Shown: positions 4,177 through 59,514 of the stretch, in pieces
Layout: each line of letters starts with the position of its first letter
Position numbering within the stretch: the stretch's first letter is position 1
DNA from: Botryllus schlosseri
Taxonomy: Eukaryota
Direction of reading: 5' to 3'
Length of the DNA: 64,000 nt
Assembly: GCA_051294905.1 (NCBI GenBank)
Contig: CM119371.1
Location: forward strand, 8,062,001 to 8,126,000
Position numbers and translations under genes: made by a program
Notes under the pieces: generated by a model
Told to the model about the DNA's origin: nothing
Databases searched by the model: none
Seen by the model: only the letters and a program-made list of their open reading frames with translations

Positions 4177-4232
<56 letters not shown>

Positions 4233-7437: not shown

Positions 7438-7444
7438 CATCGTC

Positions 7445-7501
7445 GCCACGATAGCTCGGTCGGGGGAGCGCCAGTCCAAAGATATGAAGGTCGCAATCGC
7501 A
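7445..7501 (+). pseudogene. tRNA-Phe pseudogene (T-arm deleted)
   Basis: GCCACGATAGCTCGGTCGGGGGAGCGCCAGTCCAAAGATATGAAGGTC aligns to tRNA-Phe; same CGTC leader and downstream flank as units 1 and 2. Confidence 0.8.
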
Positions 7502-9125
7502 GAATTTTGTAGTTTTGAGAATTAACTTTATTTCACGCCCTTGCACAATGTCATAGTTTCTGTTCTAAGGATCAATAGATCTCGACGATTACAATTGTGA
7601 GAGCATATCCATTCCTTGTTTTACTTATTCTAAGCAATTCACGTATATTTGAATGATATATAGAACATGAACAGCACGTGATATCACTCACTCAAAGGCG
7701 TCCTTGACTTAATGTTATGGTTCGCCACTATTGTTTGTAGTTGATTGACGTACATCACCTGCGATTCTGTGAAGCAGTTTGGAGGTCTTACATGTCAGGA
7801 TCACTCCAGTCTTGAAAAGATCTGATTGATAATCATTGACCGCACAATGCACATGATCACACAATGACTGGGGAGTGGTGAGTCGAATAAAGTACTATAC
7901 GAATAGATTCGCGACTGGCTATCGATTCGAAATCATAGAAGTGTGACCGCGATTTTCGACTACATGTAATTTCAGATAGCGTCCCCGCCAAATTCGCGAC
8001 TGTGATGCAGGCTTCAGTTAAGTTAGAAATAGTGACTTCTGTTTCTTCTTATGACAAATATACGCGGACGCAATTACGATTCCAGAGCTTAAATATATTG
8101 TCTTCGAGATTTTCCAGTTGGCTCATGATAGAATTTCGACGGATGACGTCAGCGTATATTGATGAGACAATTTTCAGAATAAATGATTATTTTCTCAGAC
8201 ATGAATCTATTCTCGATATTTGCTATTCCTCCCAAATATATTTTATTGAAAGATACTGGTGAAGTTTTTCGCAGTCTTGGATTCTGTGTAACAGCACAAG
8301 GGTATTCGATAGTATAAGATAACGATGGGACTGCTGAGGAAAGAACCCAGGCTTCGGTCACGATGAAAATGTGGATATTACATGAATTTTGTCCAAATTA
8401 AATTTGCAACGATGTTTGAGGGATATATAGACAAATATATAACTTTATATTGCTACGGGAACTACTACACCATTTATTGCTATACCGTTTCGCCAATTTT
8501 CATCCGCGATCCCATAGGTTCTCAACTTCATCGACCACTGAGTGTTCCTGTTCCATTGAATTCTAATCGCCCAAAGGGGGCGCTGGCGACAAGCTTAAGG
8601 CCCTCTGACACGGACATTCGAGACAATTATAGTCCTTTTAAGGCAGAGTCGATATCGCCTATAATATTGGTAGTAATAAGCGGTGTTATTACTTTTATCC
8701 GCTCAAAACATACCAAGTGCTTTTCGTTCACTTCACTCTCCCCGACATTGGTGGCATCTCATATTTGTCAAAACTTGGTGATGTCTTGGAGATGTAAGCG
8801 TAGCTGTGGATCTTGATACATCAGTTTGACATATATTTCGACGGTGACCGGCCGAGTCCGATATAATTCAGTAGCGCCAGTGACGAGAGACAACTGCCCA
8901 ACGCAGTAATCAGTGGTTAATTGCACGCCGTTTCGTGATTACCTTTATCCGATCGATTGTCTATTTATTCCTATGCATGCCAAGCAAGTCATAAAGATTT
9001 GCAGGGTCGTTTAAGGTAGGTTGGTGCGGCGGCTGTTGTTGTTCGTTGAGACTAGTCACATCTTAGCGTATTCTTGCAGTTTTATTACGTTAATTCTGTT
9101 CTACATTACGACTGAAGCAAAAGAG

Positions 9126-12100
9126 ATGTCAAACAGCCCCAAGAAGCAATCTGATTGCGAGCTTGTTCACGACACTACGGGACAAGGCTCCCCTGAGCCT
9201 GGTATCGATTCTACAGGCGCCGATGACGGTAAGGTTACTGACAGATTATAGATATGTAAGAATATTGATTAATGATGCTGTAGGCCTATTTGAACGTGGA
9301 CTTCTTGTTCAACTTTTTATGATGATATGATATATCATGGCCCTGGATGGCCAAAAATTTTCAATGCGATGTTTTTCAATTTATTCTTCGTTGCCAATAT
9401 CGTGCACTAATGCAGCGTCACCTTGTGATAGCCTACATTGAAATGTCCGGTCTTTCGTTTCCAAAACTCAAATCGATTGAATATACGCGTTCGCGAGTTC
9501 CTCGACTAGTGTTACTCAACGTCGGAATAAATTACTAACACCGACTTATTGTGCTCTGACTCCCGAAAGTAGGCTATATCGGCCGTTCAATTATAGTTAC
9601 ATAACGATGAGATTAATGCGCTGCGTGTTGTTCGACCACCGTCATCTCGTGTGTCACCATTGAAAAATCATACAGAAGATTACAGTGTATTTTGGCTCAT
9701 GATAATAGGGTTACTTGATAATTGTCGACACTCATTTCCGTGACTCCTTTATGTTCTCGGCCCGTGCTTTAGTGCTAGTCTATGAGGTGACGCATGGACT
9801 ATTTTCAGACCGGAAAATGGGCCACACCAAGACGAGATGACCCACTGACTTAGATTAATCGAGATTGGATATTCACGTCTTGTAAAGCATATATTTTGTG
9901 GGGGATGCTTTCGCAAGATTGAACTCGTTCGTTGTACCAACTAGTTACGTAGTAGGTGCCAACAGAGAATCGTATCATTTCCAAATCTGCGATGAAAACT
10001 TGATTCAGCCGTTTATCAATTCTTGGTATACTCTTGCACCACTGAGTGCTATTCTCTCAACTATGCTGGCATTTCACTAAAGGGGGATTTCAAATGCTTC
10101 GGTTGGTTGTGATGTGAATCTCGAAAAATTAGATTAGTTATCGATTACCACGCAAACACGGTGTGCTCATTGCCGTGTTGCACATGGAAGTCGGCCAAAT
10201 ATCCGTCTTGTCGCTTTCGTGGCAGAGTACGCTAAGTTGCCATCCCTTGAATAATCATGTTTCCGCAATGGGTAATTTTCACTATTTTCAAGAGAATGTA
10301 TCGCATGAGCAGCTGAAAGGCGAATCCGACGCGGAAGTCGTTCGTCTACCCGTAAAAAATTTGATGGATCTCGGATCCGGGCCGCCGGACGCGGTTTGCG
10401 AAGTACCGATTGCACCAGATGAGGCAGGTAATGCCAGAAGAGATCCCTTATGAAGTACCGCTACTTTATTAGAGTACTGGAGCAGGTTATTAAGAGTACT
10501 GGAGCATGTTTTGCATACTTGCAGTACTTCAGTGATTATAGTTGGAAAAAAGGGTTTGGATTATACGACTTCACTCCTGTATACTATGAATTAGTTCAAC
10601 GATTGGTTCGCATCGCTTCTGTGAATGAGGGAAATTACCATATCTACAGTACAAAATAACATGGTAACAGAATCAGACATGGGATAATCGCGATTAGTAA
10701 TTGTAATCGATGAAGACGATTACAGCATTTTCAAGTAATCGTAATCGATTACATTCGAAAAAATACCGAAGTAATCGTAATCGACTACTTCCCATATCTA
10801 ATCAATTTCTCTGTTGAAGAACGATTACTTTTGATTTTTACAAGGACTATGACATAAACTAAACAATTAACATTCATGAACAAGGAGTTTGGTGATATCA
10901 CAAACGTCTGATTTTCAAACGCCATTGCTCATTATTACGTCAGAGGTAGCCTATTAGCTTTGCTCGTCATTGCGTAAGAAGTATCCACAGTTAATAGATA
11001 TTCGAAGTACGAATGTACGTGTACCGGTGTACGTACATAAGTGTGATTGTAAGAACACCCGCCGTGATGTTTATCAGGTTATCAACACGTTTCACACACC
11101 ACTACCTCGCAACAGGATAATTAATCACTACTCTGCCTAGTTTAAAATAGTAACCTGCGTATTGATGTTTGGTTATGCATAGTTGAACGCAGTTTGACCG
11201 CTGCTGCTTGACGAGCAGTATGCCTATGTAGTACGTACGTACACGGGACAAAGACTTGAAATTTTGTACTCGTCAAGTAAATCATAACGGTTTTCACAAC
11301 GAAGCATTAAAAATCAACAGCTGCTAATATATATCATAACCGAGCCGGTATTTTTCGTTTCTCGTAACGGCACCTTGCAGTACATCATCTGCAACAAGTT
11401 GAAGACAGAATTTTATGTTCTTTGCACCTTATTCTCGTATGAATCTACTTGAAACGGGCGCCAATCGTCATTTCACAATTCTTACTCGACATTGGGTCCC
11501 GCCGCCATAGCCATGGTCCTATATACCATGTTAGCGTGGGTTGTAGCTAGAATCAGTACCAAAACAGCAATTCATCCCCCAGTCCAAACGTTGGTCTTTG
11601 GCCCCCACAGGGTGGTATTTTAAAGTTGAAGACTGAATTTCGGTAATAATATTGGTAATTGCATTATATTACTATTATTTTTTAATCATCTCTCAAGCAC
11701 CCGATGGTGAGATTTACCTGTAGAGCTGGGGGCACATAATTCGTAATTATAATGTAGGGTATCTTGTTATAATTACTTAATGTATGTTGTTAATTCGTGA
11801 CCTCCGGTCTGTTATGAAATCAAAAGATATTGTTGTATTCCGAACCGACAGACTGAAAGAAAAACTTTTGTGAGACGCACACACAAATTGTCACGTCTTT
11901 AATGCTCTGTGCGTGCCCGGGTGGCATCGGCATCGTGGGCTCAGATTGGAAGGATCGGACTATTAGTCACGCCCACCCAGACAATGGATACATACCCCAA
12001 GTTTCGGCCTAGTTCTTTCTTCAGTAGCACACTTCGTTAAGTCGCGTGTTGATCAAAACTGCGTATGTCTTTTGGTGTGTCGTGGCACGATATTGACTGG

Positions 12101-15100
12101 AACCTAAAGGCCTAAAATTATCAATTAAGGTTGCATTTAAAATAAAAAGCAATTTGAAGCAAACATGTATGAAACAGGTCCTTGTTTAAAACATGTTTGT
12201 TTTAGGCCAATACGTCCCGTATATTCATTTGGGACGTCGTTGTGGATTGACATTGACAATTGATAATATATAGGGTAAATATATGTACTATAACTGTTGA
12301 ACAGACTATTTTGAGGGTTCCAACGATCCCATATCGATGTACGTCGGCCAAATCGAGTGGTATTTGTCCGTAGGCTCATACAAAATGTTCTTTTGAAAGT
12401 ATTTACACAATTATGGCAGTATTTTACAACCTAAAAAACACAATTTAGGTTTTTTGAATGCCTTTGTTTGAAACACTGTTTAAAATATGTTTCAAACAGA
12501 GTGTTTAAACGACTATTTTTTTAAATGCTACCATACTATAAATTATGTATGCTTTCTTTCTTGAAGGGGTGACGTATGCATTTCAAAATCAAGCTATCTA
12601 GAGAGAATTTCAACTTACTTGAATCTCTCGAAAATACTCTATAAGTTGAGTTGATTTACGAAATACTCTTGAGTACTGTTCGTGCTCGTTCCCCACCCTA
12701 TTGGGAAATTTGGGGTGCAGCAGTCGTGGATCTGCCAAGAATGTAAACCGTTGGATGCGATAAATCGTCTTTATAAAAATGAGCAATTGGTACATTATGA
12801 CATGACAAGAAAACGACGCATCTTTTTAAAAGGAAGTCTGTTATCTCATCAGGCCTTTTCAGCGCAATCCATATATTGTCTTCCAATATAACTTCTAAGA
12901 TGAAAAATATATGTAATCGTGATTACTTTTCCAATGTAGTCGTAATCGTAATCGACTACTTCCTGATTTTGCTGTAATCGTAATCGTAATCGGTTACATT
13001 CATGAAGTAATCACCCCATGTCTGAACAGAATACGTTTACGATAATTGCTTTATCTGCGAAGTCGGACTGGGCACAATGATTGAAGTACTCGAATCTGAA
13101 TCGAGTATTAATTTTAATGATGCGAGTCGAGTGGTAGAGGACTATTTTTTCGAGGTCTGAAATTACACGCTCCTCGCAACTGGAAGTTAATTTATCAACG
13201 ATACTTAAATGTAGGATACTATTTCCACTGTGGTAGCCTCGAATCCTTGATCGTACGTATCGAGGCGTACAAAACATATTAAAATGCTTAGAACGTTGCT
13301 AGAAAGAGCACATAAACGAAGTCATCATCATCCCACAACATTATCACAAAGTGCAATGAAATCGGCATGGTCAAAAATATACCTTAAGGTCTTTAATGTG
13401 ATGAATAAGAGGCAATTTAATTTTTATGGTGGCATGAAAGTACTATTGGAACTTTGAAATATCACAGACTGTCATGACGTCATAACGAGAGGTACTAGAA
13501 TACTCGGCTTGAAGTACAATACGTGATTCAGAATCGAATCTTTCAGGTACTCCATTTTACCCAGCCGCAGTCGTCAGTAGTTCGGCGTTATCTAAAAGAT
13601 GCATCTTTCAATTCAGAAAGTATAATCACCTCCCATTTACTGCATACACTTTTTAAAACAACTATTTAGCACAGTTGAGGCCTTTCTAGTTCGAGTAGTT
13701 TTGACGTGTCTTAACTAACCGCCATCTCTACTTTCAGTAGCAATGCTGGCTATATAACCACCAATTCAAGTATGATAGTTCATAAGTATAGCTCTTGTCA
13801 ATACCACATGTTTTATCGGTTTATCGTAGTATCTGGACGCGTTCTTGTACCCTGATAACCACCCGTACAAATGCAGATAATGCTGACTTAAAACCTTCAT
13901 TCTAGAGAATTTTCCGAAGAAATCGAGCTGTGATCAGTCTGTATGCGAGTCCGTGATTACTGAGGCAGTTAGCGATGAAGGATCGTCGAAATCTCACGGT
14001 GTTGACCAAGTCGTGCCGGGACCCAACGGTATGATCTTCACAAGTATTATTACAAATATGGGATCATTATTCACGTCGGTACTTGATAACGGAAATGCGG
14101 GGTCAAAACAGTGCTATAATGTAAGTTTCCGTCCACATAGCCAGGTTGAAATTTGTGAAAGCCAAATTGATTTAAATGATATTGCCTTCGCAGATGAGTT
14201 GTTACGACGCGAAATGCAAAGTTGACGAAATGAGAAATTCGCGGAATTGAAAAAATATTTTTTGGTGTCATTCAGCAACGTGTTCTTGATATGTGTGAAC
14301 GAGAGAGGCATTGGAATCTTTTTGAAATGAATTTGACACCAATTGCGATGGAAGAAGTAAACTATATTGAAAGATAAACTCGACAGATTTGTTTGAGGTG
14401 TGACAGCGATTAAGACAGATTCGCATAATGTCAAATCGTCATAGTTCTGCTCTTCAGCGACGATAGCCTACTAGGCCACCATGTTTCCCGGCGACTGACA
14501 GGCCCCAACTTGCGGGTATAGCAGCGGTGATCTCTCGCGGTGGACGTTGATGTTAAATGATGATGATGATAAATTTTGTGATTTGTGAAAAGTGTCCTAT
14601 TTTCCGTATCGCAAGATATGGCGACCAGTGGTAGCTTATGGGGTGGGCGGTCGCATTTGTTAGGAAAGTCCCATATCTAGATAACCATCAAGTCTCTGCA
14701 TGCGGTAGAGGTACTTAGATTTGATGAAGTCTATCGTTGCAACCATGCAATAATAGATAGATACGACTTAATCCAGCTGTTCTGGCTCATTACTAATTTC
14801 AGCCGATATCTGTCTAGATTACTGTGGGGTCTATTTATTCTGCAGCAGTTGTATCGCTATTCTATAATTTCACGCTACAAGTCATACATCTTCAACATGA
14901 AGGCATTAGCTATATAGTTATCTGGCTCACTTCCGTTATAATTTGACAATGTATGATAAAAAAAGGCACTGGGGCTAGAACAATTCGATATTCCGGCCTG
15001 CTTCATAGTCATGTTATAGTGTCATGTAAACATCACTAAATCTCGTCCTATAGGGTGCAGCAATATAAAGTTTTCACCAATAGATGGAAAATGGGGGTCT

Positions 15101-18100
15101 GGGGGGCACATTCCTATAGGGATGCCCCGGAACTGTCACCCAGCCCCTCCCCCCAATCGCCAATCGTAGGGCCACCACTGATTGTCACCCCAAAATGAAC
15201 CAAATCTGTCGTCGCAGAAGGATCGTCTCCTATATGCGAGGAAGTTGATGGCTCCGAATTTTCGGAGACTCCAGGTGACCTCGAATCTGGACTGAAGAAA
15301 CCCGTCAGAAGCAAACCGGAAACGTCCCAGGAACGTGATATTGTCGCACCTAACGATGGCCATGGTAAGTGGTATTCGACAAGAGTAGCGTTATGAGCGT
15401 TGATAGTAAACATGATTTCAGCTTGAACAGCTATCGGAGAAGTGTAAGTATCCCAAGACCAGCAATACACGGTTGTGTTGCATTTATTCACTGAGGAGAT
15501 GTGGTCAGAAATGAACTACGTCCACCTTTTCGGTGCGCCATATAGGATTTTCACATTTGCGCTACTTTATTCAAGTGGTTATGCGTTCACAGTCGTTCTA
15601 CTTAATATAGTTTGGAGTTTCAGGCAACAACGAGTCAAAACTTTTAGCTATATTGTCCAGTGTTCTAATTTCATTTCTTGATCGAAAACTGTGAATTTCA
15701 TTTCTTGATCGAAAGCTGTGAATTGTATTGTTGATAAATGCTCCGCAGTGGATGCGCTGATATAAGGTAGGCTAATAAGAGAGTGACGGTGACTTGATAA
15801 ATGATAATAATAATTTTCAGTCATAATTCGCAACAATGGTAAACGTGATACATTCTAAACTATCTTTAAACTCCTATCCACGTTTTTCTATTAGGACATC
15901 AAAATGCATTTGGGATTCTACAAAGCTTATTGTGTTGGTCGCTGCGATCTGAGCAATGTGCAGCTTGGTGAAATAACCTTGCTGTTTAGTGAAGCTAGCA
16001 ATTATTCTGAAATTCTCCCTTCCTTGACTGACGTCACAAGACCGACTTGAATTAGACTCCTTGAACACGGCGACCAGCGCTCGACCCTGACTCAAGTACA
16101 CAAATCAAGTGCACCGAACCGTGTTTGGATTTCAGCTTTCGGCTTTCATTTTTGACATGCCTGTTCATCATTTACGGGCGATGATGACTCTTGGTAATCG
16201 CGAACACCGAGTTGTATTACGAATTAGGGATTCGGAAACGTATCACGTAACAATTTCAAGCACAGACCGTGTTGTGCGTAATGTGACAATGGCAACAAAG
16301 AGGGTTTCAACTAAAATATATGAAATAAGTGAATTCTTGGGACCTAAATTGTACCGGAATACTTTGCTGCATTGCCTTTATTTTGAATCTGGATTACGCA
16401 TGCTAGGTACATAGGCTACGTATTCTGGCATATTATTGAAAAGGCTGCAAAATTACCAAATTTACGGTTCATTTCATATTGATATACTGTATGCAGCAAC
16501 TTTAAAAACTAAGTTTTATGTTTTGAATTCCAAGCACCGTTTCGCGGGCCGCACTCCGCCCAGGTATGTACTGGAGTATAGCTTTTGTACTCTACTTCGA
16601 AATCACCGCTTTCTCTGAGTAAAAATTTACGACTTAACTTCTACTTCTACTTCAGTATCAACGACGACTATTTGACCACCTCGAGATTGGAACTCGTCAT
16701 GGAAGGTTTTCTCTAGACCGGACGTCGTCGACGTCTCGTTGAGGGCATTTTAAACTACAGTTTCGACACAAGTTTAGTGTAAAGTAAAATTAGTAACACC
16801 CTTTATTTGACATTATCACTTGACGCAAATTTGTTATTGGCCGTGTCCCCGGACATGTTCAGTCACCTGTTTACAACACATCCAAGTCCGCAGTTTTTAT
16901 GGACTCCTAAGGCTGTGTCACATATAGTCACTGGTGACTAGTTGAGATAAATGATCACAGGTAGCCAATGTTTCATGTCTGCCTACTGAACTAACCAAGG
17001 ACATTGTCATGCACGTAATCTTCTCTTGTGTTCGAAACTGTTTTCACGCCAATAAGTCCGCACAAATCAAGATATGTAGTCTGAATTTCTTGCGTTTCGA
17101 CGCGATCACTCTATGCCCAGATTCGACGACCACAAATCCAATTTCCACTAAACACACAACACTTCGAAAATCGATTGCTCTGCTCTCCCTGATCTTGTTG
17201 ATAATTCGTTTTTACCGAGCGAGGTAAATCGTGAGTGTCTGAAAGTATTGAACACTATTTAATGCAACATATTGTGAATATATTGAAGTCAAATTCAATA
17301 CGTTTAAGACACCCCAATGTAGCTCGTTCGCTGATGCAAAAATGCAACTCATTGTGAATATATTTGCTTGCTCCTACCGTAGAAATTCTGTCATTGATAT
17401 TCAACGATCGGTATCTGAATCACTTCAATATCGGCCAGTTAGCCTACGTGACGCCTAACTTTGCTGCGATAGCAAATGTCGGCTCTAAATCAAATACTAA
17501 ATATATTGATTTCACGGAATCGACTCCCACCTTATCGTGCATACACCTTCTGACTACCTCTTACCAAAGCGAAAACGTTTGAATAAGGCGATTAGCAAAC
17601 GCTAGCCAGCAAGCAGACCACGTAGGTTAGCGTGCCCGTACTCCTAAACGTATAACGGCTTTGAAATATACCTGCACCACGATGAAATGAGTTGAATATT
17701 GTTCGATCGCCGCCTGGTTGTATATGTGTCTCTTGCAAAACCATACATATAATTGATTTAGATTCATACTAATCTACAGGATAAATATCAACCTTTATTT
17801 CTGGGAGCCCCCATATGTGACACGCGGGCCATAGGTCTGGGAAGTTACTTGGGCGTAGAAAATTTTCAAATCGGAAAATAGGCCACGATAAAAAAGGTTC
17901 ACCCCTGGCCTAGATTAATCGAGATTGTATATTCGTATATAGTAGAGTAGTGATTTTGTGGAAGATACTATTAGTACTAGTAGCAGCAGCAGCAGCAGCA
18001 GCATCTTCCACAAATTACTACTCACCTTGGGGACCGGGGACCATCATGAAAACCGATGAAAATTATGAAACTCCAGATAATTCAATGATTTGCTCTTTCC

Positions 18101-19560
18101 GCAGATGGTTTTGGATTGTCTGGTGATGCACACGTGGAGAAGAATGACGTGACACTGAGGAAAAGAGGCTCGAAGGTTGAATATGTCGATGATCTGACCA
18201 CTGGGAATGGTAATCAGCATTACGTATTATAGTCCTGGATATTACGGTCGTCGCATTCGACTGCACCCGATAGATAGGCTGTAGAGACTAGTTACTGTAA
18301 GTGCATAGATTACGGGATTGGATATCCACACTGTAAGTGCATAGATTACGGGATTGGATATCCACGTCTTTTTGGGTTAGCACTAGGACCATAATCAACG
18401 TAGGCGACTAATTAACGTCAATAAATCTCGAAACAGTTATTAATCTACGTGTCCTTCTTTGAGCTTTGTATTGGCAGAATACAAAGAGTTTGATGTATTT
18501 TACAGTCCCAATTCGGATCGTTCAAATCCAGCTTGACCCGTCTTTACTGTAAGGTCGGGGTCAAATTTGACCCCCACCGAAAAAATATGTGAGCCATTTT
18601 TGAATGATAGTATTGTTCTTGTTATCCATGTTGTCTTTCGTACGGACGGTGCGAACCAGAGATGGTCAGTAACGAAGTACTGCTACTTTTTGAAGTACTT
18701 GAAGTAGAACTTTTTAAGTGGTTGTGAATTTAGACTACTTCTACTTCTACTTGACAGTTTTCAGTTTTGTAGGCAAAAATAAGCGTAGATACCTACTTAG
18801 AGCGTAGATACTTACTTGCTTGTGAACCACCACTCGTACTTCTACTTGAGTAGAAATTCCGGCGTTACTTCTACTTCTACTTGGGTAGCGACAGTGACTA
18901 CTTTGACCACCTCAGTAAGGCGCGCTGTGGGGTTCGAAAAGAATATAGTTCATCCTTATGTCATAAAAGTTGTGACTTTGAGAGCTGTTCAGCAGAATTA
19001 GGGTTCCTTTGTGTAGGGAGGCCTACCACCCCAAAAAGGGGGGGTGCTGGCGACAAGGTTAAAGAAACACTGAAGTAGGGCGAGTTTGCAAAATATAATT
19101 AGGTACTAGGGGATAGTATTTGGTACTTATTACTGACCACCTCAGGTATAAGTACTTCTTACTGGCCACCTCTGTGGTTAACACACCTACCGTCCACGTA
19201 TTTACAGCGCGGAGGAGACAATTGTAAATAATCGTCCTATTTCAACAGTGTATAGACGAGTCGTTATTCTAAATGTCGTTCTTTACCTTGGATCCGCTGA
19301 CCGTGAATATCGTTTTAGGAGGCGATATTCCGGAACCTATTCCGATCAATGCGAGAGTTAAGGATTGCATGGAATCATGTATAAAGTTCTTGACACGTCC
19401 GGGAGGTATTGTGCTGACGATTGTCGTGATCTTGGCGTTTTCCTGGTTGGTATTTAAGATCATACGTATCATACATTTCATGCAAAACAACGACTCTGCT
19501 GTTTCCAATGACACCGTCAACGTAACGAGCTTCCAGAACCAAACTCAGGAAAGTGGTTAA
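9126..19560 (+). CDS. Orphan gene, paralog A: ~284-aa acidic protein with a single C-terminal TM helix (type II / tail-anchored-like)
   Basis: Exons 9126-9228, 10293-10427, 13906-14028, 15218-15364, 18105-18209, 19319-19560; all GT-AG, all phase 1, 855 nt open. MSNSPKKQSD...LRKRGSKVEY...GGIVLTIVVILAFSWLVFKII...NDS.NDT.NVT.NQT.ESG*. Exons are conserved in paralog B with only in-frame length changes. A 64-nt upstream intron lies at 9016-9079. Confidence 0.82.
10674..13024. mobile_element. Non-autonomous hAT-like element (2.35 kb) in intron 2 of paralog A
   Basis: TIR CAGACATGGG...CCCATGTCTG, perfect TSD aacagaat, (GTAATC)n subterminal repeats; empty site in copy 2 at ~25294. Confidence 0.92.
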
Positions 19561-20129
19561 TACCGTTTTCGCGGCCACGATCCGTTGTACTGCAACACAA
19601 TTCTATCAGTCGTCTGTGTTGATGTGTGTTCTTACCTAGTGGGAACTTTTGCGTCGTGTACTTGTCAATTGGTAAATTGTGCCCGCGCCGTCAGTAACAA
19701 TGTGCCGGGTGTATTGATGTTGTTAATAACAATGCGCTGAAAAATTGGGTGTTTATTACGTTTACATTTGCGTTGGAACGAAAGCGTAACGTTCATTTCT
19801 AATGAAATATGAACCTGGAAATCTTGCTGATCGTACAATGAATACGTGGTTGACAATCGCGCTTTACTTGCCGCATGATCTGATTTCGATTGAAGTGGAA
19901 GCCCGTTTTTTGGAGTCGCATACTGGCCAAACCATCACAGATCTTGGTATGTGCCACCCGGACAAGGTCAGCGCCAAAACGCCGATGATGGACTGGAGTT
20001 TGCGCAACCATACGCTAAAGCCTCCCAGTGGCCTCGGGCAATACTCTCATAATTTCGAATGCAGTTAAGCTGATGTAAAATTTTACGTAGTTTGTCCGAG
20101 AGTGCGTTTACCCCTTAGGGGTGAGAGAC

Positions 20130-21345
20130 TCAGATGGAATGCGTATCATATAATTATGGAGAATGAGTTTAAGCCCTATATATATATTTATGTAGCGAAA
20201 CAATAATTGAAGAATTACAACACAACAGCGTCACAAGTAAATTCTACAAACACATTGCAAGCCCATATGAGCTGAGGAAAGGAATGTGGAATATGAATTT
20301 GGTCACAGAAACCAATGGAAAGAACTTACGAGATAAATTGTACTACCGGATGAGACAAAGCCGAAATTATATATAGTGAGTGAATATGGTTTCGAAACGG
20401 TTATCAACCAGACTAGAGTCTTCAGAAGAAATATACAAACTGGCACAATGGTTTCACTAACATCGGGGTGTAACAATTAAGGAAGGAAAACATGCCCTAC
20501 CATATCAAAGTTGATGGGTATGGATGCCTTATCAGCACAGCTGAAGACGCTTATCAAAAGCGATGCTACAACTGCAATATGACGGAGAATATTGTGAGGG
20601 AATGCCCGATTAAAAAAATTGGAATGCACGATTAGCGGGGGGCTGGGTCATCGTGCAGAAGGGTGCAGGTCCAAAATTTAACGAGGTAAACTCGGGCATA
20701 TGACCGAGCCTGAAAATACTGAAATAGCCATCAATGAAACAGTAAATAAGGAGCAGGATGTTAACTCCACCGAACCTCAAAATAGCGATGGGAAAACAAC
20801 TTAAAAGACGACTCTAAACAAACCAACAACAGAGAAACCGGTTGACCCGAAAACAATCCGGAATGACGACAAGAAGAGGAAAGAAACAAGACCGATGAGC
20901 CAGGCAACTATTAAAGCATACTCCTCAACCGACGCCCCATTCGAACATGTAGACACAACACGGGAAGTAACCGAGCTAGCACAAGCCGTGTTGGAAAACT
21001 ACAATACTGACAAACAAAGAGAAACACAGACTTCCTAAAAACCAGTCATAAAAAGCCATCGGATATTAAATCTCATAAACAGACAAACAGGAGTGAGGAG
21101 ACGGTGAAACATCGACACAGCGAAGGAGTTACTACCAGAAGAAATGCAAGCAGCCAAGCGAAAAAGCCAAATAATAATAAGACAAACCCAACAATTCTCC
21201 TGACAGAGCCGATGACGAATCTATTGAAACTAGCGTCGATTAATCTAAGTGGACTATCAAATAGGCAACAAGATCTGGAACAATATATACAAACATAGAA
21301 TTTTGATATAATACTGATTCAGGAACCGCATGAAATTGAAAAGGT
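20130..21345 (+). mobile_element. Decayed non-LTR retrotransposon (Tx1/L1-like): ORF1 zinc knuckles plus start of ORF2 endonuclease
   Basis: Remnants RCYNCNMTENIVRECP and CTISGGLGHRAEGC (degenerate CCHC knuckles, ~20560-20667); from 21212 MTNLLKLASINLSGL...FDIILIQEPH is an APE endonuclease N-terminus; stops and frameshifts present. Confidence 0.78.
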
Positions 21346-21824
21346 GGAGATTAGGGCTGTTCAAAAATAACTTTTTTCCCCGGATTCTAGCCATTCACTG
21401 ATTAAATTGTTAGGTTACCCTAAAAAACGCTGCACACCAAATTTGGTTCAATTCTTAAAAGTATAGGACTCCGCAGATCCAATTAAAATTTTTAATTTAT
21501 TAGAGTAAATTAAAAAAAAAATTCAAATTTTTCTGTCAACCACATGAAATTGTTGAGCTGTCTTCAAAGACGATGCGAAACAAAATTGAGTCAATTACGA
21601 CCAGTAAAAGCGGAGTTATGTGAGTTTTTCAGTGATAATCCTCGGATTATCCTTAATCGTTGGACGTGAATTTATTCTCGGTAAATGTCATTCATCCGGA
21701 ATATATTTTATTCAAAACTACTTGAGAAGTTTTTCGCAATCTCGGATTCTGCGCGACAGCAAGAGGGTATTCGAGAGTATAAATTAACGGCAGCACTGCC
21801 GAGGAAAGAACCCAAGCTCTTCGT

Positions 21825-46712: not shown

Positions 46713-47774
46713 AAATACCTATCTCGGAACATTAAGCCGCACGTGCTCACAGGCTCAGATGTCTGACGTCTGACGTCTGACGCCGCTATGTCTGGAATAT
46801 GTATGACGTCATAATTAACCGTTCGCTCGAGCAGCCACGAATTCATGATCAAACAATTCATAAGGCCATTCGCAGGAAAAAGGTAAAGGACGTGTACCAC
46901 TCTCGGCGCAATGGCAAAGGAGCATGGCGGCTATACGCCAGCTCCAGTGTTTCGATATATAGTTTGCATCATACATGCGTTAAGGAGTCTACAATGGTGG
47001 CAGAACTGGTCCAGCAGATAATTACACAAAAGATCATACCTGCAGTAAAACTACTTAACATACCAAATTCGCTTGGCATGCTACTATTGCTAGACCTTGA
47101 TGTCTCAAAGGATACTATTTATAAATTGATATAAACGATGGTATATGCAATGTCCAAATGTTCGGATACCATTCACCGATTAGCATTCAGCACGGCCATC
47201 GATGTCGTAATTTGCTTGATGATTGAAACATGATGTAATGACGAAAATCACATATATATGTCCATAATAAGACCGTAAGCGTGTAAAATGATCGAATTGT
47301 AAGTGCAATAGCAATGTTGCAAATAATGATTATCCAGTAAATCGCTTTTACGAATGCCAAAGTAAATCCGGAATACTGATTATCCAGTAAATTGCTTTTA
47401 CAAATCAAAAAGTAAATCTGAAATACTGGTTATCCCGTAAATTGCTTCTACGAATTTAATCTGTAATTTTTTTACCCTTTAAAAACAAGTAAATTTACTT
47501 TTGACGTGCCCGTATATTAATTTAACGGGCATTTACCGTTAATATAACTGACGGGACGAATTTTCCAGTATAATTTGGGTAAATCTACGAATATTTCTAA
47601 GACTTCCACCCTAATAAACAATGATTTTGAGCCCACACTATAGGGTAATCGATGCAACTACCGGGGGAGGGGGTGTCTGTTATATGAATCTGGTTTCTAT
47701 ATGCATCTGGTCGTTAAGTTATTTGAATGAATTCTGTCAATAATATTGGTCGTTCCATATATTACTATATAGAT

Positions 47775-49169
47775 CAGTGGTTCTCAACCTTTTTGGCTTC
47801 GCGGACCCCTTTTGACCGTTACGGACCCTCGCGGACCCCCTCAAGTTTTAGTTCAAATTTGGCTCAATTGAGGTGCAACCGTCATCTGTCTTGTGCAAAT
47901 ATCAACTGTAGGCCTGTGATAAACAGCAACAGAATGACTTTCTTGAAAATAACATCTTACTATTTATATAGAAATTAGGTAGACTTCTATCATTTCAAAT
48001 CTTATTTTCCAGCTGTATTTTTTGAAGTACGTATGGTCGTGCGTTGAAAATCTGCGACTTCGATATGATATGAACGATGAGTGCCGAAAATCCATTTCCA
48101 TAAAGATATATGGAAGCTAATGCAATAATAACGCTAGGGTTACCATATACGTACTTATTTTTCGAGTTTTTGAAAATGTCCTCCGAGGACGCCTAAATGT
48201 CCTCATTTTTGGCAAATCATCCTCTTTTACAGCTTTTACATCTAAGATTATAGATATATTCGAGTGAAGATGGGAATTTGTGGAAATTTGTGGTCCGATA
48301 GCAGGCGACGACGTTTTTTTAGTCAACACCACTCATTTTGAGAAAAAGTGTGTAAATCGGCATTAGAACGAAAGTAATGACCAATCATTTTTTTCAGCAA
48401 ATATAACGAAATCGGCTGATTTTAGTTTTCATCGACCAACTTTTCTGAATTGATAAAAGTGTCGTCCTTTCCCTATTCCAAAATATGGTAACCCTAAATA
48501 ACGCTTAACGCTTCCGACGATACTTTTGGTGTGATCGCAACATTTATGGCACCAAAGAAGAAGAAACATATTTCTAATGAACATATATCGTCCAGCCTAG
48601 TCATTTTTATCTAGCATCTCATCTTGAAGTTATTCTAGGATAGTGGTCATGTATATATATCACGGGATAAAATGGATTTCGTGGCGAGGTATCAATCTCT
48701 TCATTGGGATAAATGAGAGAAAATACTTCAGAAATTTTTATTTCAAACGACTGTTCACTACCTTGATTAGGCTGACGACTTCAAATCGAAAAGGTTCTGG
48801 TAACATTACTAAGTCACGCTGATTGACCTTACTATATTTCCATATTTTATTTTGTCCACAAACACCAACAAAACGTCTCTGAACAGTAATATGTTTGTAT
48901 TAGCAGGTTATTGGCAATTCGGCAATTAAAACGAATTTGTACAGTAGGGTTAGGGTTAGGGTTAGGGTTTCATGTTAGACGATTAGTATAATGATGTAAG
49001 TCATGAGGTTTTAGCAGTTGTGGTGCGAACCTGCCTTATGAATTCTAAAATAAAATTAAAAATTAAAATTACGTCATCAATCATTTTGAAAATTTAGTGG
49101 TCTCGCGGACCCCCTGAAATTGCTTCGCGGACCCCTAGGGGTCCGCGGACCCCCGGTTGAGAACCACTG
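47775..49169. mobile_element. hAT-like MITE (CAGTGGTTCTCAACC TIR) with nested MITE at 48135-48496
   Basis: Perfect 15-bp TIR and TSD atatagat; inner TAGGGTTACCATA...TATGGTAACCCTA with TSD aataacgc; same family as 53815-54674. Confidence 0.93.
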
Positions 49170-50419: not shown

Positions 50420-51548
50420 CAATGTTCCCTCTAAGCTGCGCACGTGCGCAAATGCGCAGTGCTGAGACGGTCTCTGCGCACAGAAATTCTAGGTTGCCCA
50501 CAAAAATTCCGAAGTGATGACCTTTTTTTTAGTCGTTACGCACCGTTTTCGAAGGGTCTGCGCAGTGAGTTGGTGAGTGTGCGCAGACTTGTGATAACTT
50601 TACTGTGAATCTGAATAACAACCGTATTTCCCTCTGTGACTCAACAAAATATCTTGGAATTGTCATTGACTTTAAATTGTCATGGAAACCGCACATTGCT
50701 CATACCATTACTCAGCTTTCTAGGTGTGTTGGTGTAATGACCCGACTCAGGCACATAGCTCCTAGATCTGTACTTGGGACAATTTATTTTTCACTTTTCC
50801 ACTAGTATCTGCAGTATGGCATTATTGTATGGGGTACTGCATGCACCTCTCATTGCTCTAAAATTCGAACCCTGCAAAACCGAGCCATGCGTTTGATGGC
50901 CGGCCTGCCCCTTCGAACCAGACTGTCCCAGTTCTACCGCAAACACTGAATCTTGAAATTTGATGACATATTTGTATTTGAAGTTGCAAAATTAATACAT
51001 CGATATTTTTCGAATGACTTGCCTCCCGTCTTCAACCATTTATTCGTGCTTGCTCGAAGTGTACATTCCCACAACACCAGATATTCTTCCAAGGGCAACA
51101 TCCATGTACGCCCTCCCACCAGTAACCTCACAAAGAAATCAATCGAATATGTCGGTCCTGATATCTGGAACACTATACCTACATCTATCAGAGACCTTCC
51201 TTATCACCTATTCAAAGAAGAATTATTCAGACACCTTATCTCCTATTACTAACACCACTTGTCTTACCCTTTTTTCCATGTTATTGTTATTATTTATGTT
51301 ATGCTATGATGAATTAGATAATCCCAACGAACTGCGACCAAATTTATAAAGACTATCTGTCACTGTTAATGCAGGGTGTGATCAGACTAGTTGACCCTAC
51401 CCAGAGTCATATCGATTACACCCTGTCCTACACCGTTAAGTATCTTGTTATAATTTCATGCGCCAATGTTATTTTCGTTTCGGTTGGACGAATCAATAAA
51501 TATTTCTCTCTCTCTCTCTCTCTCTGTCAAAAATTAGAGGGAACATTG
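50420..51548. mobile_element. hAT-like MITE hosting a LINE fragment
   Basis: TIR CAATGTTCCCTCTAA...TTAGAGGGAACATTG; perfect TSD gttgcgag. Confidence 0.92.
50605..51525 (+). mobile_element. 5'-truncated L2/CR1-group LINE (RT C-terminal region plus 3' UTR)
   Basis: KYLGIVIDFKLSWKPHI...IYFSLFH*YLQYGIIVWG...LQNRAMR...HSHNTR...GPDIWNTIP...FKEELFRHL in one frame with two internal stops; AATAAA at 51496 followed by a (CT)n tail. Confidence 0.92.
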
Positions 51549-53814
51549 GTTGCGAGTGAATATTGTATTTTGGGTTCGCCCTTCAAGGCTCGAAGGAAAT
51601 CACTGCACGATACGCCCGGAAAAAGCATCGAACACCTTGAGAACAACGAGAGTGCGATATCTGTGATTTTTCTACTGCAGTGATTTTAGTAACATTATTC
51701 AATGACACTATATACGCTGAATTAAAAATAATGAAGCTCTGCACCCCCAAGAAGCACTTCGAATACAAAAGTGATAAATTTATACATATTCTTTTTGTGT
51801 AATAAATTCCGGTTGGCTGGTGCGAATGGAAGTAAAAAAGAGTGCGAATAGAGCTCAAAAAGGTTGAAAAGCATTGCTCCAGCATATTCTTCGGCGGTCA
51901 CCGCTGCTTCTATTTAGTCAACTCTAAACTAAGGATGGATGATAGCTGTTTGTCGTTTAGTATTCATGGTGTTTCGTAGTTAATAAACAACAGGCCAATT
52001 ACATCCTCGTACGAGGCATTAGCTGCCCAGATATGGCAACCCTACTTTGATTGTAGGACTTTCAGTAATCAGTAGTAATCATCCGTATTTTAGTAATTAC
52101 TCCACCGTATCGACTGTCTATATATTGTCAAGCATCAACCATCTCGACACTCCTGATTTTGAAGTACGGAAGTTTTCAGTTGGTAGGTCTGAGCTGCAAC
52201 TGTCGTCAACAGCTGACGCTCGTGTCAGCATGATGTTTTCTTGCAGATAAGATCATCAAGTTTATATTGATAAAGATGCTACCTCATGCCGGAGCGATAG
52301 GGAATGCAATCAGCTCCGAGAAGCAATCTCTTCCTCAGCCACAGCCAAATACGAGAGGAAGCAACGGTAAGATGCAGGCTATTGGTCTGCCGAAACAAGG
52401 CATGTTCTATTGCCATTCGCGGACGCTAGCTATAGTTAGATACATTTACTTGCATCATTTGGGTCGTATTTTTGCTTCATTTTCAAGTATTTTTCATTGA
52501 ATGATTTGCTGTGTGCTCATCGTAACATGTGTTCTGTTAGTGGGATAGGTATCCTTCTTTTATCATAATTGAGTGATTATAATAGGGCTGTGAGGAGGTA
52601 ATTGTGGTGGTCAAAGATGTTGCAATGACAATCGCAGCGATCCACGCTTGCCAAACATCGTAACAACTTAATCGAAAAAATCTTATATCGATCTTTCAAA
52701 GGCCTTCACGTAGTATAGTGCTTACACATCGCATAGTGTGCACAGAATGTCCATCACCCGCTCGCCACACCATCGACGATGAGGTGATAAACGAATCGCA
52801 TCTTGTCCTTTCAGCCAACGTGACGCTCAAACCGAAAAGTAGTCAAAAAGACGCGGAAGGTGTACGCCTTGCCTCTGAATCTGGGATGGACTATGATCCT
52901 GTATCGTCTGATGAAACCTACGCAGTTTTGACCGTACCAAATGAGGAATCCGGTAACGCCAGAGTTTATTTGTTGTGAAGCTGCTGCTGTTTACCCGAAG
53001 CCCTGTAAATCTGCTGCTTGGTGCTCACCAGCAAGTCCGTAAATGTGGTCAATATCGACTGTTGCCGATGGGTTTTGTATACGCTTACCGATAAAAGCCT
53101 CTCTGAGCAATCTTCAACGTTGGCGGTGGTTGCCCCACGGTTGGGGGTGAGGGGCTATAAGTATATAAGGGTAGCTTCTTGGGGGGCTATTTCAGAATAA
53201 CCGGCATACCCCCCTTTCGCATCTATTATCACCCAACTTAATATTAGTGCGCCATATAAAACTGGATTACGTGATGTGAATATGACACTTCAACACGGCT
53301 TTTAAGCTGGTTGGAAATCTTTAAGTGCAGTAGCTCCAGCTGGGCCTTCTTTTATCACACATTGTCAAATTTGAAAAGAAGTGACCCCGTTAACTACAGC
53401 TCACACGTCTTCATGTTGAAGATGTATGGCATGTAGCGTGAAATAATAGATTAGCGATACTACTACTGCAGGCTAAATAGAACACGCTAATCTGAAAAGC
53501 TATCGCCTGACATTAGTAAGACGTCGGCACACCCCGTCAAGGTATACTTGTATATCCTATTCAAGTGTATATCGAAGCTCTGTACATTGAGGAAAAACTG
53601 TTCACAATAATTCGTAATTCAGATTTTGTGACGGTTGGATTAAATGTAGCGCGAAATTGAACGGTGACCTCAGAATTGGAGTCAATGCCTTTCTCCATAG
53701 GCAACGAAGTTGTTGATCGTGAAATAAACAATTGTCGCGATGCAAGCAACTTGGATCCCCCGTGTGTTCAATATAAAAGACTTATTGGATACGCGCTTTC
53801 TCGTTCTGTTATAT

Positions 53815-54674
53815 CAGTGGTTCTCAACCTTTTTGTTTTCGCGAACCCTTTTCGGACCGTCACGGACCGTTTCACCTTTCAGTTCAAATTTAGCTCAATT
53901 ATGGTGCAATCGTCATCTGTCTTACGCAAATATTAACTCTAGGCTAGTGATGAACAGCAAGAAAACTAATTTTCTTGAAATTAACATGTTATTTATGCAG
54001 GAATAGGGTAGACTTCTAATACTTCAATGAATCCTGATAATGTATTTCTTTTAAAAATACGTGGCCATGTCTTGAAAATTCGTGCCTTTAATTTGATACG
54101 AACGAGTGCCCTAAATCCCTTTCCTCAATGATAGGTGGTGGTCAAAATCGATAATAACGCACAACCCCCTCCGACGACACATTTGGGTATGATCGCCACA
54201 AAATATGGCACCAAAATTAGGCAAGAGATTTTCTTATGTTCATTGAACATATATTGCCCAGCCTGGTCATGTTTTATCTAGCAGCTCATCTTGATTTTAT
54301 TATGGAAAAGTTGTTATGTGTATTACAAAAAAAAAACATTTCGATGTCATCGTCATTGACCTTACTACTCAAACTTTTAATTTTCCACAATCCTCAACAA
54401 AACATCTGTTATGTTAGTATCAGTAGGCTATTGGCAATTTAGCAATTGGAGTGAGTTTGCACAGTAGGGTATTTAATGTCAGACGGTCATTCTGTTGATG
54501 CGAGTTCTGTAGTTTTACCAGTAATGAAGCAAAACTGCCTCGTTCTTTCCTGATTAAAAATACAATTATACAAATTAAGTCTTCAACCATTTTGTAAATT
54601 TCGAGGTTTCGCGGACCACCCGAATTTGCTTCGCAGGCCCCTATGGGTTAGCGTGCTCGGGTTGAGAACCACTT
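53815..54674. mobile_element. hAT-like MITE inside putative exon 3 of paralog C
   Basis: CAGTGGTTCTCAACC...GGTTGAGAACCACTT; perfect TSD tgttatat; colinear with 47775-49169. Confidence 0.92.
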
Positions 54675-56135
54675 TGTTATATGCAGCAATTCCCGTCTGC
54701 TTGGTACACTAGCATTCGTGGGTTATCGCGCAATTTCACTTTCCGGCATCTAGTTTTAACTCGTTACTGACACATCGCATTGATCGTTAAACCGCATTGA
54801 TCGTTAAACAATCTCATTCGCGCGGTCAAATGGATCTGATTGTGGGTCGCACAGTGAAACTTGGATGAAAATGTTTGGACGCATTGCCCTATATCACGAT
54901 AACGGAGTTTTGTATTTTTTAAATCCCTCGTACTCGTAACGTCATTGTCATTTGCCTAATTCGTGAAGATGTACCCAGCAATGTTGAAACTATAACCCGC
55001 GTCCTAAACTACTGGGCGCCTTCTTAGACGTTTATTTTCCACTACATGGGTAGTTAGTCTTGTTAGTCTCATACCTGGTAGGTTTACCCACACGCGTAGA
55101 TTCCGTGAAAGACCAATTTGGTCGAGACTATAGCAATAGCAAGTGCATGCTTGACCTGAAAGAATAATGGGCGTATTATGAATCACTCAATCTGGCCGGA
55201 TAAAATACTGATCGCTTGTTGCATTGGTATAAACTCGTGTGCGAGACTCATACCACGCAGCGACTGAAAACGGATTCGGTGTCTTCGTCACGGTTAGTCG
55301 ATCCCTGCACGAAATGGTAAGGTTTGTAATAGAGATTCACTGGATCGTGCTCCTCAAGTCGCTTTCGGGATTCAACGTATGTCATGATACTTGCTAAATG
55401 TGCTATATGTCTATCCTTGCAGAAGAATTGTCTCGCGTAGGCCTTCACAATGAGGCTACGAGCCATTCCGAATTCAAAGAGCTCGTTAGAGCTGAATTAA
55501 AGAAGGCCGTATATTTAACTTCTGAGGATATGAGTGTCGCTGCTCCGATTAGTGAACAAGGTAAGTTTGTATTCGATTAGCGTCCGGTGGTATTATTCAG
55601 TGCTGTTCCAGCGCCTCCCATTATATTCTGGACATTTCTAGTTACCCTAACTGCCCAAAGGTTCCTCGCAAATTAAAGCATCTGATAGTTGTGCGCTGCT
55701 TCGAAGTCGGGAGACGCTCGCTATTTTACGCTTTTTGTGTCCAGTAAAAGCTTGGGAATGAGCGGTGATCTTTCAGGTCTGGTTAGAGTTGAGTGTAAAT
55801 TTTGAGGACTCAAGAATGATGCTGATTAAAAGGTCTAAAGTTGGGGTTGTATCTACCTGTTTCACTTATATGGGTTTTTTGTATGCTGCGTCTACACTTT
55901 TATCAACAGTATTTTGATGGCTTATTATCAATTCCTGCCTAATTAATAGAAAAGTGAAACGTAGTTAGTCAATTCAGTTTCAATCTCGCACACTCGCACA
56001 GTCAATTCAGTTTCAATCTCGCACACTCGCACAGAGGATTTTAAAATTCCCTTCGGTGATGTCGAGGCGCATGTGAAAGAGAAGCCCTTCGGATGTAAAC
56101 CACAGGCGCAAGTGGGACAACAGCACACAAAAAAC

Positions 56136-57793: not shown

Positions 57794-59514
57794 GTAGAGG
57801 GGTAGAACCCTAAACGTGAAATGTGGGAAGCTAACGAATAATACGGGAGTCACCTAAAATCTGGTTTTGTCGCTTAGAATGGTACATCATGAGGTATTTC
57901 TTTTTAATCCGTGATGTAATTAAAATTTTGAAATTCAGTGATTCTAATGTAATTTAGGAATAAATATGTAGGCCTATCTTTAATTCTGAATTTGAAAAAC
58001 CTAACTTCTGTTGTCACACTGTATCATGGAGGTCTTGAAACTTGTCGATGGAAACCAGGTTGAGAACTCCTGTAGTAGTTCTTTACACAACCCATCTTGG
58101 TGTTGGTGGATTGTGGGAATGTGTTCATTTCCCCGTCAACTTGCGATTCCCAGTTTTAGACAAAGATGAGCCTGAACCCGATCCGGACGTTCTTTACGGT
58201 GACGACGACGACGATGATGACGACGAGGACGAATGCCCGTCAGTTTTTAATAGACAATGCATACTGGTAACCGAAATTAACATCAAGAAAATTGCAAGGA
58301 TTGAGGGGCCTCGTCCCGAAAGTGGTTGATCGCAAATGTAACGCAACGCACGATGGGACAGCTTAATGCCGCTTTTAGTTGGTAATCTGAAATTTGCATG
58401 TGCCCCCTAATGAACGAACAAGTGCTGGTCGTGTAATGCTTCGCAGGCTCGTGTATGGATGGATACTGGGTTAGGGTGATGCGTTAGACCAGTGGTTCCC
58501 AATTGTTTTTCGCTTGTGCCACACCAGGACAATTATCAAACACTCGCGGCAGACTTACAAGAAAGTTGCTTTTTTATATTTAAATTTATACAAACATATG
58601 TACGACAGAAAAGAGGTTGCATTGTTGACGGACATACACGCATTTCATCTTTTCCAAGTAATCTACACGCATTTCATCATTTCCAAGTAATCTTTCTCGT
58701 GTACAAATGTGTACAGCAGGCAAAACCAAAATGTTTTTGCCTGATTGATTTTGTACCTGTAAAGTAAAAGGTCTGCAGGGACATAACTAAAACTGATTAA
58801 TTTCTGAGGAAACGGTTATGCAAACAAACAGTGTTAAGTAACTCGAGATTGCTTGATTTGTTGCTTGGAGATAGATTATGGACTTTGTTGCTTGGAGATA
58901 GACTATGGACTAACGATGAATCCCGAAAAGTGATAAAATATTTTCCAAAAAGATTCGTGGCACACCTGAGAATCTGTAGCGGCACACACTTTCGGAATCG
59001 ATGCGTTGGTCGCTTACCTGCAGATATGTACATGTTGGGACCAAATCGCTGTCGAGTCGAGCGTCATGTCGAGTAAATTGATTTTCCAAGTCGATCGATT
59101 TTCGGAGGTGAATCGAGTCGAGCCAAGTCGAGTCACAATTCAAGTCTATTCATAGTTTCAAAGTGAGAAGCAGGATTCAAAGTCGTTGCCTTTTGCTAGC
59201 TGTTTAGAGTATATTAATTTGTTTCTGAGTGAAGGAACGGATAGACATCTAAATATACATGCAAAGGGTGCGTGTTATCTCGCTCATGCATGTACGGAAC
59301 TGCAAATAAAATACATGATTATCTGTTCGACTTTAGTCTAATTATCAGGCAAAGTAATGGATTCAATACGAAGCCTCGAGGCTGCGTATCGTTCTGTGGA
59401 TTACCATGGTGAATACATTTGCTGAACCAGATTGACAAATGCGGGTTGTCGGCGGACCCGTTTCATATACTATCTATCAATATATATTTATTGTATAGAG
59501 GTAACAAATGTCTG

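Follow-up and report, generated by a model that had tools for sequence, protein, structure and literature searches.

A clustered gene family built of short phase-1 exons in Botryllus schlosseri, with putatively tail-anchored members

The stretch of DNA described here comprises 64,000 nt of Botryllus schlosseri (GenBank assembly GCA_051294905.1; 495.5 Mb in 219 contigs) and corresponds to C1:8,062,001-8,126,000, C1 being contig CM119371.1. The whole stretch is called the window in the following, and positions given without a contig are those of the window. It holds two transcribed genes of six exons each, A and B, and, farther downstream, a third gene, C, which judging by its sequence is related to them; two further putative relatives, D and F, are situated on the same contig outside the window. 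The reading frames of A and B are under selection, their residues barely so, and we consider it rather probable that the genes constitute a young, fast-evolving, lineage-restricted family of tail-anchored proteins with glycosylated tails and a modular, disordered cytosolic part.

A and B are six-exon genes invisible to a scan for open reading frames (ORFs), as the longest stop-to-stop ORF in the window, among 103 of at least 80 aa, has only 157 aa (G+C content across the window 37-44%). For their reconstruction, conserved ORF pieces in three frames were used, and then all AG..GT intervals open in phase 1 (71 in the span of A, 124 in that of B). Gene A (9126-19560, plus strand) has a coding sequence (CDS) of 855 nt for 284 aa, gene B (23823-35198, plus strand) one of 843 nt for 280 aa. 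All ten introns of the two genes are of the GT..AG type, all ten lie in phase 1, and the internal exons are 105-147 nt long. The original prediction, drawn from the letters of the window, had described A and B with six exons each and with the same intron phase and protein lengths, and this structure was obtained again, with three junctions now supported by RNA. RNA data came from four runs with the same species label (X1, X10, X13, and X14), used as raw reads or contigs and aligned to window positions 9000-28999; 15 joints are listed and eight others are unlisted, and negative statements on joints concern those listed. The exons are:

9126-9228, plus strand: exon 1 of A with the ATG, 103 nt, phase-1 donor; RNA depth in the X10 bin 9000-9666
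10293-10427, plus strand: exon 2 of A, 135 nt, the family cassette with the widest conservation
13906-14028, plus strand: exon 3 of A, 123 nt; RNA joint 14028>15218
15218-15364, plus strand: exon 4 of A, 147 nt; RNA joints at both borders
18105-18209, plus strand: exon 5 of A, 105 nt, with the motif LRKRGS; RNA joint 15364>18105
19319-19560, plus strand: exon 6 of A with two Cys, helix, tail with four sequons, and TAA; X10 depth in bins 19005-20338
23823-23925, plus strand: exon 1 of B, 103 nt
24946-25080, plus strand: exon 2 of B, 135 nt; RNA joint 25080>27189
27189-27323, plus strand: exon 3 of B, 135 nt; RNA joint 25080>27189; donor of the same kind as that of A
28531-28668, plus strand: exon 4 of B, 138 nt; X10 depth in bin 28343-28999
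31062-31166, plus strand: exon 5 of B, 105 nt
34972-35198, plus strand: exon 6 of B with two Cys, helix, tail with three sequons, and TGA

Exons 1 of A and B share 82% protein identity, and exons 5 are likewise 82% identical. Exon 6 of A possesses two in-frame acceptors 3 nt apart (the second leading to 19322), of which B retains the second only. The donor of exon 4 of B was picked by homology to the RNA-supported donor of A. The RNA joints rule out an alternative structure for A in which exon 3 would span 13969-14124 and exon 4 would end at 15334.

Three RNA joints, all of the GT..AG type, coincide exactly with predicted exon borders of A and B. The joint 14027/8>15217/8 between exons 3 and 4 of A is found in two X10 reads and in one X1 contig (depth 21.6), a piece of which starts at 13904, adjoining the exon-3 acceptor. 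The joint 15363/4>18104/5 between exons 4 and 5 of A is covered by ten X10 reads with seven starts, and the joint 25078/80>27187/9 between exons 2 and 3 of B by 16 X10 reads with 11 starts; the X10 joints derive from both mate orientations. Outside repeats, only exon-bearing bins have X10 depth, which continues beyond the stop codon of A into 19672-20338. X13 and X14 exhibit depth on repeats only within 9000-28999. Since all exons are bounded by phase-1 introns, the earlier suggestion that they could be skipped in any combination holds arithmetically; no exon-skipping joint of A or B is found among the joints listed. Some variants in reads assigned to A (at 9170, 10361, 10392, and 18144) give the reference residue of B, which could be due to gene conversion between the duplicates, to shared polymorphism, or to a divergent haplotype.

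Comparison of the window with itself reveals a tandem segmental duplication, with collinear blocks in ~8357-20005 and 22985-35708, the best of which (8357-10673 and 22985-25301) reaches 76.7% over 2441 columns, gaps counted. A and B are tandem duplicates, with a duplication unit of ~14.6 kb. Their proteins share 202 identical residues in 288 alignment columns, and every gap is in frame. After splicing, frame 0 of A is free of stops, its two other frames containing 13 and 22; in B, the figures are none versus 10 and 19. At the A/B divergence of ~14%, 117 random substitutions placed in A left the frame open in only 710 of 20,000 neutral simulations. The introns of the pair contain 103 indels per 5,223 aligned bases, 28 of which are multiples of three; at this rate, the CDS should have acquired ~17 indels, and a complete lack of frameshifts has a probability of ~5e-6. 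Because a state free of both stops and frameshifts is so improbable under neutrality, the A/B frame is considered to be under selection.

Concerning the wider family, the whole genome was searched exon by exon with single-exon proteins. The last exon and exon 5 of A/B matched only A and B, besides one marginal match to the last exon of A on C14 (C14:12,234,914-12,235,090, minus strand; E=0.85, 34% over residues 16-75, in an open frame of 74 aa). The search with exon 2 also matched C1:7,761,862 (E=0.008), and this copy led to two more copies nearby and to one at C1:8,579,257 (minus strand), such that relatives of exon 2 of A are situated at 7.759, 7.762, 7.767, and 8.579 Mb of C1. The copies belong to two putative genes. 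Gene D (C1:7,755,997-7,775,491, plus strand), ~300 kb upstream, would have 11 exons and 491 codons with a net charge of -60, and its other frames contain 22 and 41 stops. It begins with an exon 1 that resembles the one of A and B and likewise has 103 nt, followed by exon 2 plus exon 3 three times in succession, exon 4, an exon-5-like exon, a doubtful exon with a weak donor (C1:7,773,533-7,773,655), and a last exon with a helix and the ending ESG. The repeated exon-2/exon-3 unit includes the intron, and its copies share 79-91% DNA identity; this is a genomic duplication of cassettes. Gene F (C1:8,576,774-8,580,837, minus strand), ~450 kb downstream, would consist of five exons with 270 codons; its exon 1, with an upstream ATG, and its last exon resemble those of C. 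In this last exon are found an acidic run, the C-x7-C motif that C also has, a helix, and two sequons within a tail of 32 residues. Matches exon by exon connect D and F with A, B, and C, and all five spliced models have a frame 0 without stops, versus 8-41 in the other frames. Instead of the three members originally proposed, sequence comparison thus gives at least five loci for the family, all situated within 0.82 Mb on a single contig.

For gene C, three exons are supported and a fourth is a candidate:

52276-52366, plus strand: exon 1 of C with the ATG, 91 nt, included in a five-way DNA alignment with A, B, D, and F
52815-52952, plus strand: exon 2 of C, 138 nt, the family cassette, with AG/GT borders in phase 1
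55423-55560, plus strand: candidate exon of C, hypothetical, 138 nt, with strong acceptor and donor
58160-58329, plus strand: last exon of C with the acceptor TTTTAG, an acidic run, C-x7-C, no helix, and the ending ESG

With A and B alone, the kinship of C is hardly visible: tblastn with exon 2 reaches E=0.13, a profile of A and B only E=6.1 (third rank), full-length comparison gives scores that are reached by 598 (A) and 2048 (B) of 3000 shuffles, DNA word matches are only 10-14 nt long, and MAFFT alignment of the last exons aligns the stop region alone. It is the intermediates D and F that bridge C to A and B and settle its kinship. A profile of the exons 2 of A, B, D (three copies), and F, built without C, finds exon 2 of C at the top of 2,496 ORF fragments of the window (E=8.6e-8; next E=2.4), and BLASTP aligns this exon to the third copy in D with 17 of 34 residues identical (E=5e-8). 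Exon 1 of F finds exon 1 of C by tblastn (E=0.009, 11 of 22 identical), and the exon-1 profile places it on rank 2 (E=0.37). The exon-1 regions of all five genes can be aligned as DNA, and 41 of the 152 alignment columns are invariant. The last exon of C is similar to that of F (BLASTP E=0.003, 11 of 32 identical), without a profile match, and the DNA around the stop codon is common to all five genes. Judged by these intermediates, C is a true relative of the family. A further match of the exon-1 profile, at 79-273 of the window (E=0.039), was considered to be due to chance, as it lacks an ATG and overlaps a repeat (202-680).

The model of C with six exons and 275 aa, as originally drawn, was not recovered, and it is under-determined, given that 382 alternative phase-1 chains of six exons and 275 codons ending at 58329 fit. 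The candidate exon 55423-55560 is weakly similar to exon 4 (score reached by 13 of 2000 shuffles for A and by 548 of 2000 for B) and takes rank 4 with the family profile (E=6.2). For exons 3 and 5, nothing convincing was found with peptides or profiles of A/B, D, and F, nor by splice scoring with assumed donor weights. A hydrophobic helix is absent from C (best 19-residue window 0.5), and none is visible by eye when the last exon is read in its two remaining frames; in the lack of an anchor and in the ESG ending at 58329, C agrees with the earlier description.

Whether C is an anchorless derivative or a decaying relic is, on this evidence, nearly a matter of even odds, with the relic slightly the less probable of the two. 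As a relic, C would be a family gene from which exons 3 and 5, together with the helix-coding stretch of the final exon, have disappeared. This would agree with the lack of equivalents of these exons and of any convincing phase-1 exon in the gaps, with a last exon that is 72 nt shorter than that of A (about the length of the helix), and with a resemblance to the family that is significant for exon 2 alone and weak for exon 1 and the last exon. Furthermore, the ATG of C is situated upstream of the start position of A, B, and D, and the position of the ancestral ATG does not fall in frame. The upstream ATG is, however, common to F, and so no accident confined to C; the four-exon chain is open over 178 codons, its two other frames being interrupted by 8 and 21 stops, the splice sites are good, above all those of 55423-55560, and the acidic composition and the ESG end are retained, all of which would rather be expected of an anchorless derivative. 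Two collinear repeated blocks with 69-75% identity are situated around this gene, 47770-49168 upstream of the gene C region and 53810-54673 between exon 2 and the candidate exon.

The proteins encoded by A and B are acidic (pI 4.4; net charge -26 in A and -22 in B), and 66% of the residues in the part preceding the helix are disorder-promoting. Exon 5 contributes the LRKRGS motif with its KRGS site, and Cys 221 and Cys 225 are situated just N-terminal to one hydrophobic helix that starts near residue 235. The best 19-residue Kyte-Doolittle window of this helix amounts to 2.73 in A and 2.24 in B, the next-best windows elsewhere to 0.53 and 0.84; because no other hydrophobic segment exists, a signal peptide is lacking. 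Depending on the chosen helix end, about 24-32 residues follow the helix in A, B, and F, and about 10-16 in D. In A, four of the five sequons are situated in the last 30 residues (reached by none of 20,000 shuffles), in B three of the four in the tail (18 of 20,000), and the tail of F has two (343 of 20,000). The proteins end with ESG in A and QSG in B. In all these features (acidic composition, LRKR motif, two Cys before a single helix, four and three tail sequons, and the endings), the original description proved correct. To our knowledge, the tails of natural tail-anchored proteins rarely bear several sequons. Members with no more than 30-40% identity still have the start motif, the helix with its juxtamembrane Cys, and the sequon-rich tail in common. 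The exon-2 cassette carries a Tyr in C, D, and F where A and B have a Cys, such that no phosphotyrosine motif is conserved.

According to the definition of Borgese et al., as far as it is quoted in PMC8644595, tail-anchored proteins possess a single C-terminal helix with up to ~30 residues behind it and no N-terminal signal, the bulk of the protein being cytosolic. One C-terminal helix is found in A, B, D (2.96, near the end), and F, and not in C (0.5), and the residues behind it agree with this limit of ~30. With one helix, 24-32 residues behind it, and no other hydrophobic segment, the features of A and B fit a topology with the N-terminus inside and a C-terminal anchor, either tail-anchored or type II, as had been proposed for them.

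Topology, glycosylation, disorder, and function we infer from the sequences. Each short phase-1 exon would represent a self-contained coding cassette, and the protein plan would consist of a long N-terminal part rich in Ser, Pro, Glu, Gly, and acidic residues, most likely intrinsically disordered, followed by one or two juxtamembrane Cys, a single helix, and then about 10-32 residues. As the helix would leave the ribosome only at termination, insertion is expected to be post-translational, as in tail-anchored proteins, for which GET/TRC40, EMC, or SND serve as routes, with the N-terminus remaining in the cytosol and the tail becoming luminal or extracellular. The tails of A, B, and F are predicted to be N-glycosylated. 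The cytosolic part might serve as a modular, phosphorylatable scaffold or adaptor (with an RKRGS site in A and B), which is a guess made with low confidence. The family would have evolved rapidly, with genes duplicated in tandem, cassettes duplicated in tandem in D, and the anchor lost in C.

A number of observations weigh against this interpretation, some concerning the coding status of the genes and some their topology. Regarding the former, the ratio of non-synonymous to synonymous rates (dN/dS) between A and B is 0.74, so that amino-acid change is nearly neutral; codon positions 1, 2, and 3 differ at 32, 39, and 46 of 276 sites, and ungapped A/B identity is 85.6% in exons (729 columns) versus 85.4% in introns (5,223). 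Among the cassette copies of D, dN equals or exceeds dS in five of six comparisons, with small counts, and 16 of 20 exonic variants listed from the RNA reads alter the residue, which indicates weak constraint. Expression of A and B is seen in one (X10) of the three raw-read RNA runs, and not in X13 and X14. Seven of the ten junctions of A and B and all those of C, D, and F are based on sequence alone, and phase 1 was itself a building criterion for the models of C, D, and F. No homologue that would suggest a function was found in the searches. Most of these points, i.e., the dN/dS ratio, the equal identity of exons and introns, the variants, the D cassettes, the single run with RNA, and the lack of a homologue in the searches, would also be expected if the loci were transcribed without function, as young duplicates or proto-genes that drift neutrally with frames open by chance or recent origin. 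Such drift appears rather unlikely to us, however, since five paralogous frames have no stops versus 8-41 in the other frames, since the probabilities that A and B escaped stops and frameshifts as calculated above are tiny, and since helix, Cys, sequon-rich tail, and start motif are kept at 30-40% identity. Per-exon comparison of A and B, too, gives a dN/dS of 0.36-0.49 in exons 1, 3, and 4, and of ~1 or more in exons 2, 5, and 6.

Concerning topology, Lys/Arg directly follow the helix of A, so that the positive-inside rule is ambiguous for this protein, the tail of D is short and without a sequon, and the final ESG is absent in F. If the orientation were reversed, the short tail would face the cytosol, and the acidic, Ser/Pro-rich region at the N-terminus would be a mucin-like part outside the cell. 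Extracellular stalks are typically rich in Ser, Thr, and Pro and acidic, which would suit this part of the proteins, and so would the Lys/Arg behind the helix of A. Nevertheless, this orientation seems very improbable: translocation of ~230 N-terminal residues is not expected where a signal peptide or second hydrophobic segment is lacking, the sequons are concentrated in the tail and not in the N-terminal part, and basic residues, as read from the sequences, are commoner before than after the helix in B, D, and F. The N-in, C-terminally anchored topology is therefore retained here as the preferred one.

Searches against known families did not assign the genes to any of them. At the Pfam gathering cut-off, no match came from 131 ORFs of the window (≥75 aa) or from 32 peptides of the five genes, submitted one exon at a time, and the few sub-threshold rows fall on the hydrophobic helix. 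A HMMER profile of the last exons of A and B found no match at E≤0.001 among 1.84 billion representatives, and profile searches against the PDB yielded nothing (best E=0.61 and 0.37). Word-based searches with single exons (last exon and exon 4 of A, last exon of C) against longer proteins found none either, which is weak evidence. The earlier statement that no domain is recognised is hence borne out, and a match to a well-characterised family or to transposon proteins, which would have spoken against a lineage-specific family, was looked for and not found. The family is provisionally regarded as orphan, given that single-exon queries were used and that the eukaryote coverage of the collections is uncertain.

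An origin from a transposable element or a virus, or transport by one, could be suspected because the introns and surroundings of the genes are full of high-copy repeats and the family is clustered and duplicated. It is, however, extremely unlikely. The exons match only five loci in 495.5 Mb, their word depth in X1 is 1-30 versus thousands on intronic repeats, and neither the 131 ORFs nor the 32 exon peptides have a Pfam match to a transposase, reverse transcriptase, integrase, or capsid/viral protein.

In comparison with known systems, A and B resemble the tail-anchored class, as far as described in PMC8644595, in the position of the helix, the short tail, and the lack of an N-terminal signal, with the tails of A and F (about 27-32 residues) at the upper limit of the definition quoted there. 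Unlike in a homologous family, though, no sequence relation to tail-anchored proteins was found, the latter being a topological class.

For human disordered proteins, a statistical trend of successive symmetric exons with tandem duplication is reported in the part of Schad et al. 2013 (PMC3632108) considered here. The mostly disordered composition, the symmetric exons sharing one phase, the tandem duplication of exons in D, and the modular build agree with this pattern. Differing from the trend as given in that part of the publication, all introns of all models are in phase 1 here, and it is a two-exon unit together with its intron that is triplicated; the exons within A, moreover, lack detectable mutual similarity (33 of 1000 shuffles attain the score of the best pair among 15).

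Two further groups of proteins may be compared by analogy only. The adaptors LAT, PAG, and SIT have a short extracellular piece (glycosylated in SIT), a helix, juxtamembrane cytosolic Cys, and, in the cytosol, a long disordered region bearing short motifs. The proteins studied here would share with them the short outer piece, the single helix, the juxtamembrane Cys, and the disordered cytosolic part, whereas the short piece is C-terminal here and N-terminal there, and no sequence similarity exists. In KASH proteins, the N-terminal part is cytosolic and variable, and a C-terminal helix leads into a luminal tail of ~30 residues, the extreme end of which is conserved and terminates in PPPX. Equally, the extreme C-terminus is kept among the paralogues (ESG/QSG in A, B, C, and D), whereas the PPPX ending is lacking, the last-exon peptides have no KASH match in Pfam, and the tail of D has only ~10 residues.

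A more far-reaching idea, which we hold to be distinctly unlikely, is that the members act as "reverse" transmembrane adaptors. Their cytosolic domain would then be combinatorial, composed of phase-1 cassettes that each bear a short motif for binding or phosphorylation and are varied by alternative use and by genomic duplication, and the luminal acidic-Ser-Gly end would be a site of modification or docking, e.g., for a glycosaminoglycan chain or a luminal partner. C without its anchor would be a soluble competitor for the cytosolic partners of the others, and the rapid change, with its many non-synonymous variants, would reflect diversifying selection, as in immune and reproductive genes, and not drift.

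Real genes of several exons, although missed by any ORF scan, can be recovered by reading the raw letters, and the family might serve as a small and clean example of how disordered, phase-symmetric genes diversify by gene duplication (A/B), cassette triplication (D), and loss of the anchor (C). If functional, it would represent a lineage-restricted, rapidly evolving class of tail-anchored glycoproteins; if drifting, a useful case of transcribed, open, and barely constrained reading frames. Neither outcome alters a general principle, the family being an example of gene growth and not a new kind of biology.

Regarding the remainder of the window, high-copy repeats occupy 10334-13668, 18338-19004, 21006-21672, and 25008-27008, within the introns of A and B and in the intergenic DNA, and some reads contain joints that go back (12992>10735 and 12992>12974), as from tandem or circular copies of an element. 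The ORF piece 50569-50802, without a Pfam match at E≤0.01, presumably resembles, by eye only, the core of a non-LTR retrotransposon reverse transcriptase. Positions 200-8000 exhibit a tandem repeat with a unit of roughly 2.5-3.3 kb in about three copies (matches 1621-2128, 4092-4595, and 7438-7987, as well as 202-680, 2767-3244, and 5506-5786), within which genes for tRNA-Phe(GAA) (1706-1778 and 4177-4249) and tRNA-Ile(AAT) (4096-4170) are found. Finally, an inverted repeat of 368 bp with 96.5% identity (41199-41566 and 42683-43048), the arms of which are ~1.1 kb apart, looks like a foldback or terminal-inverted-repeat element.

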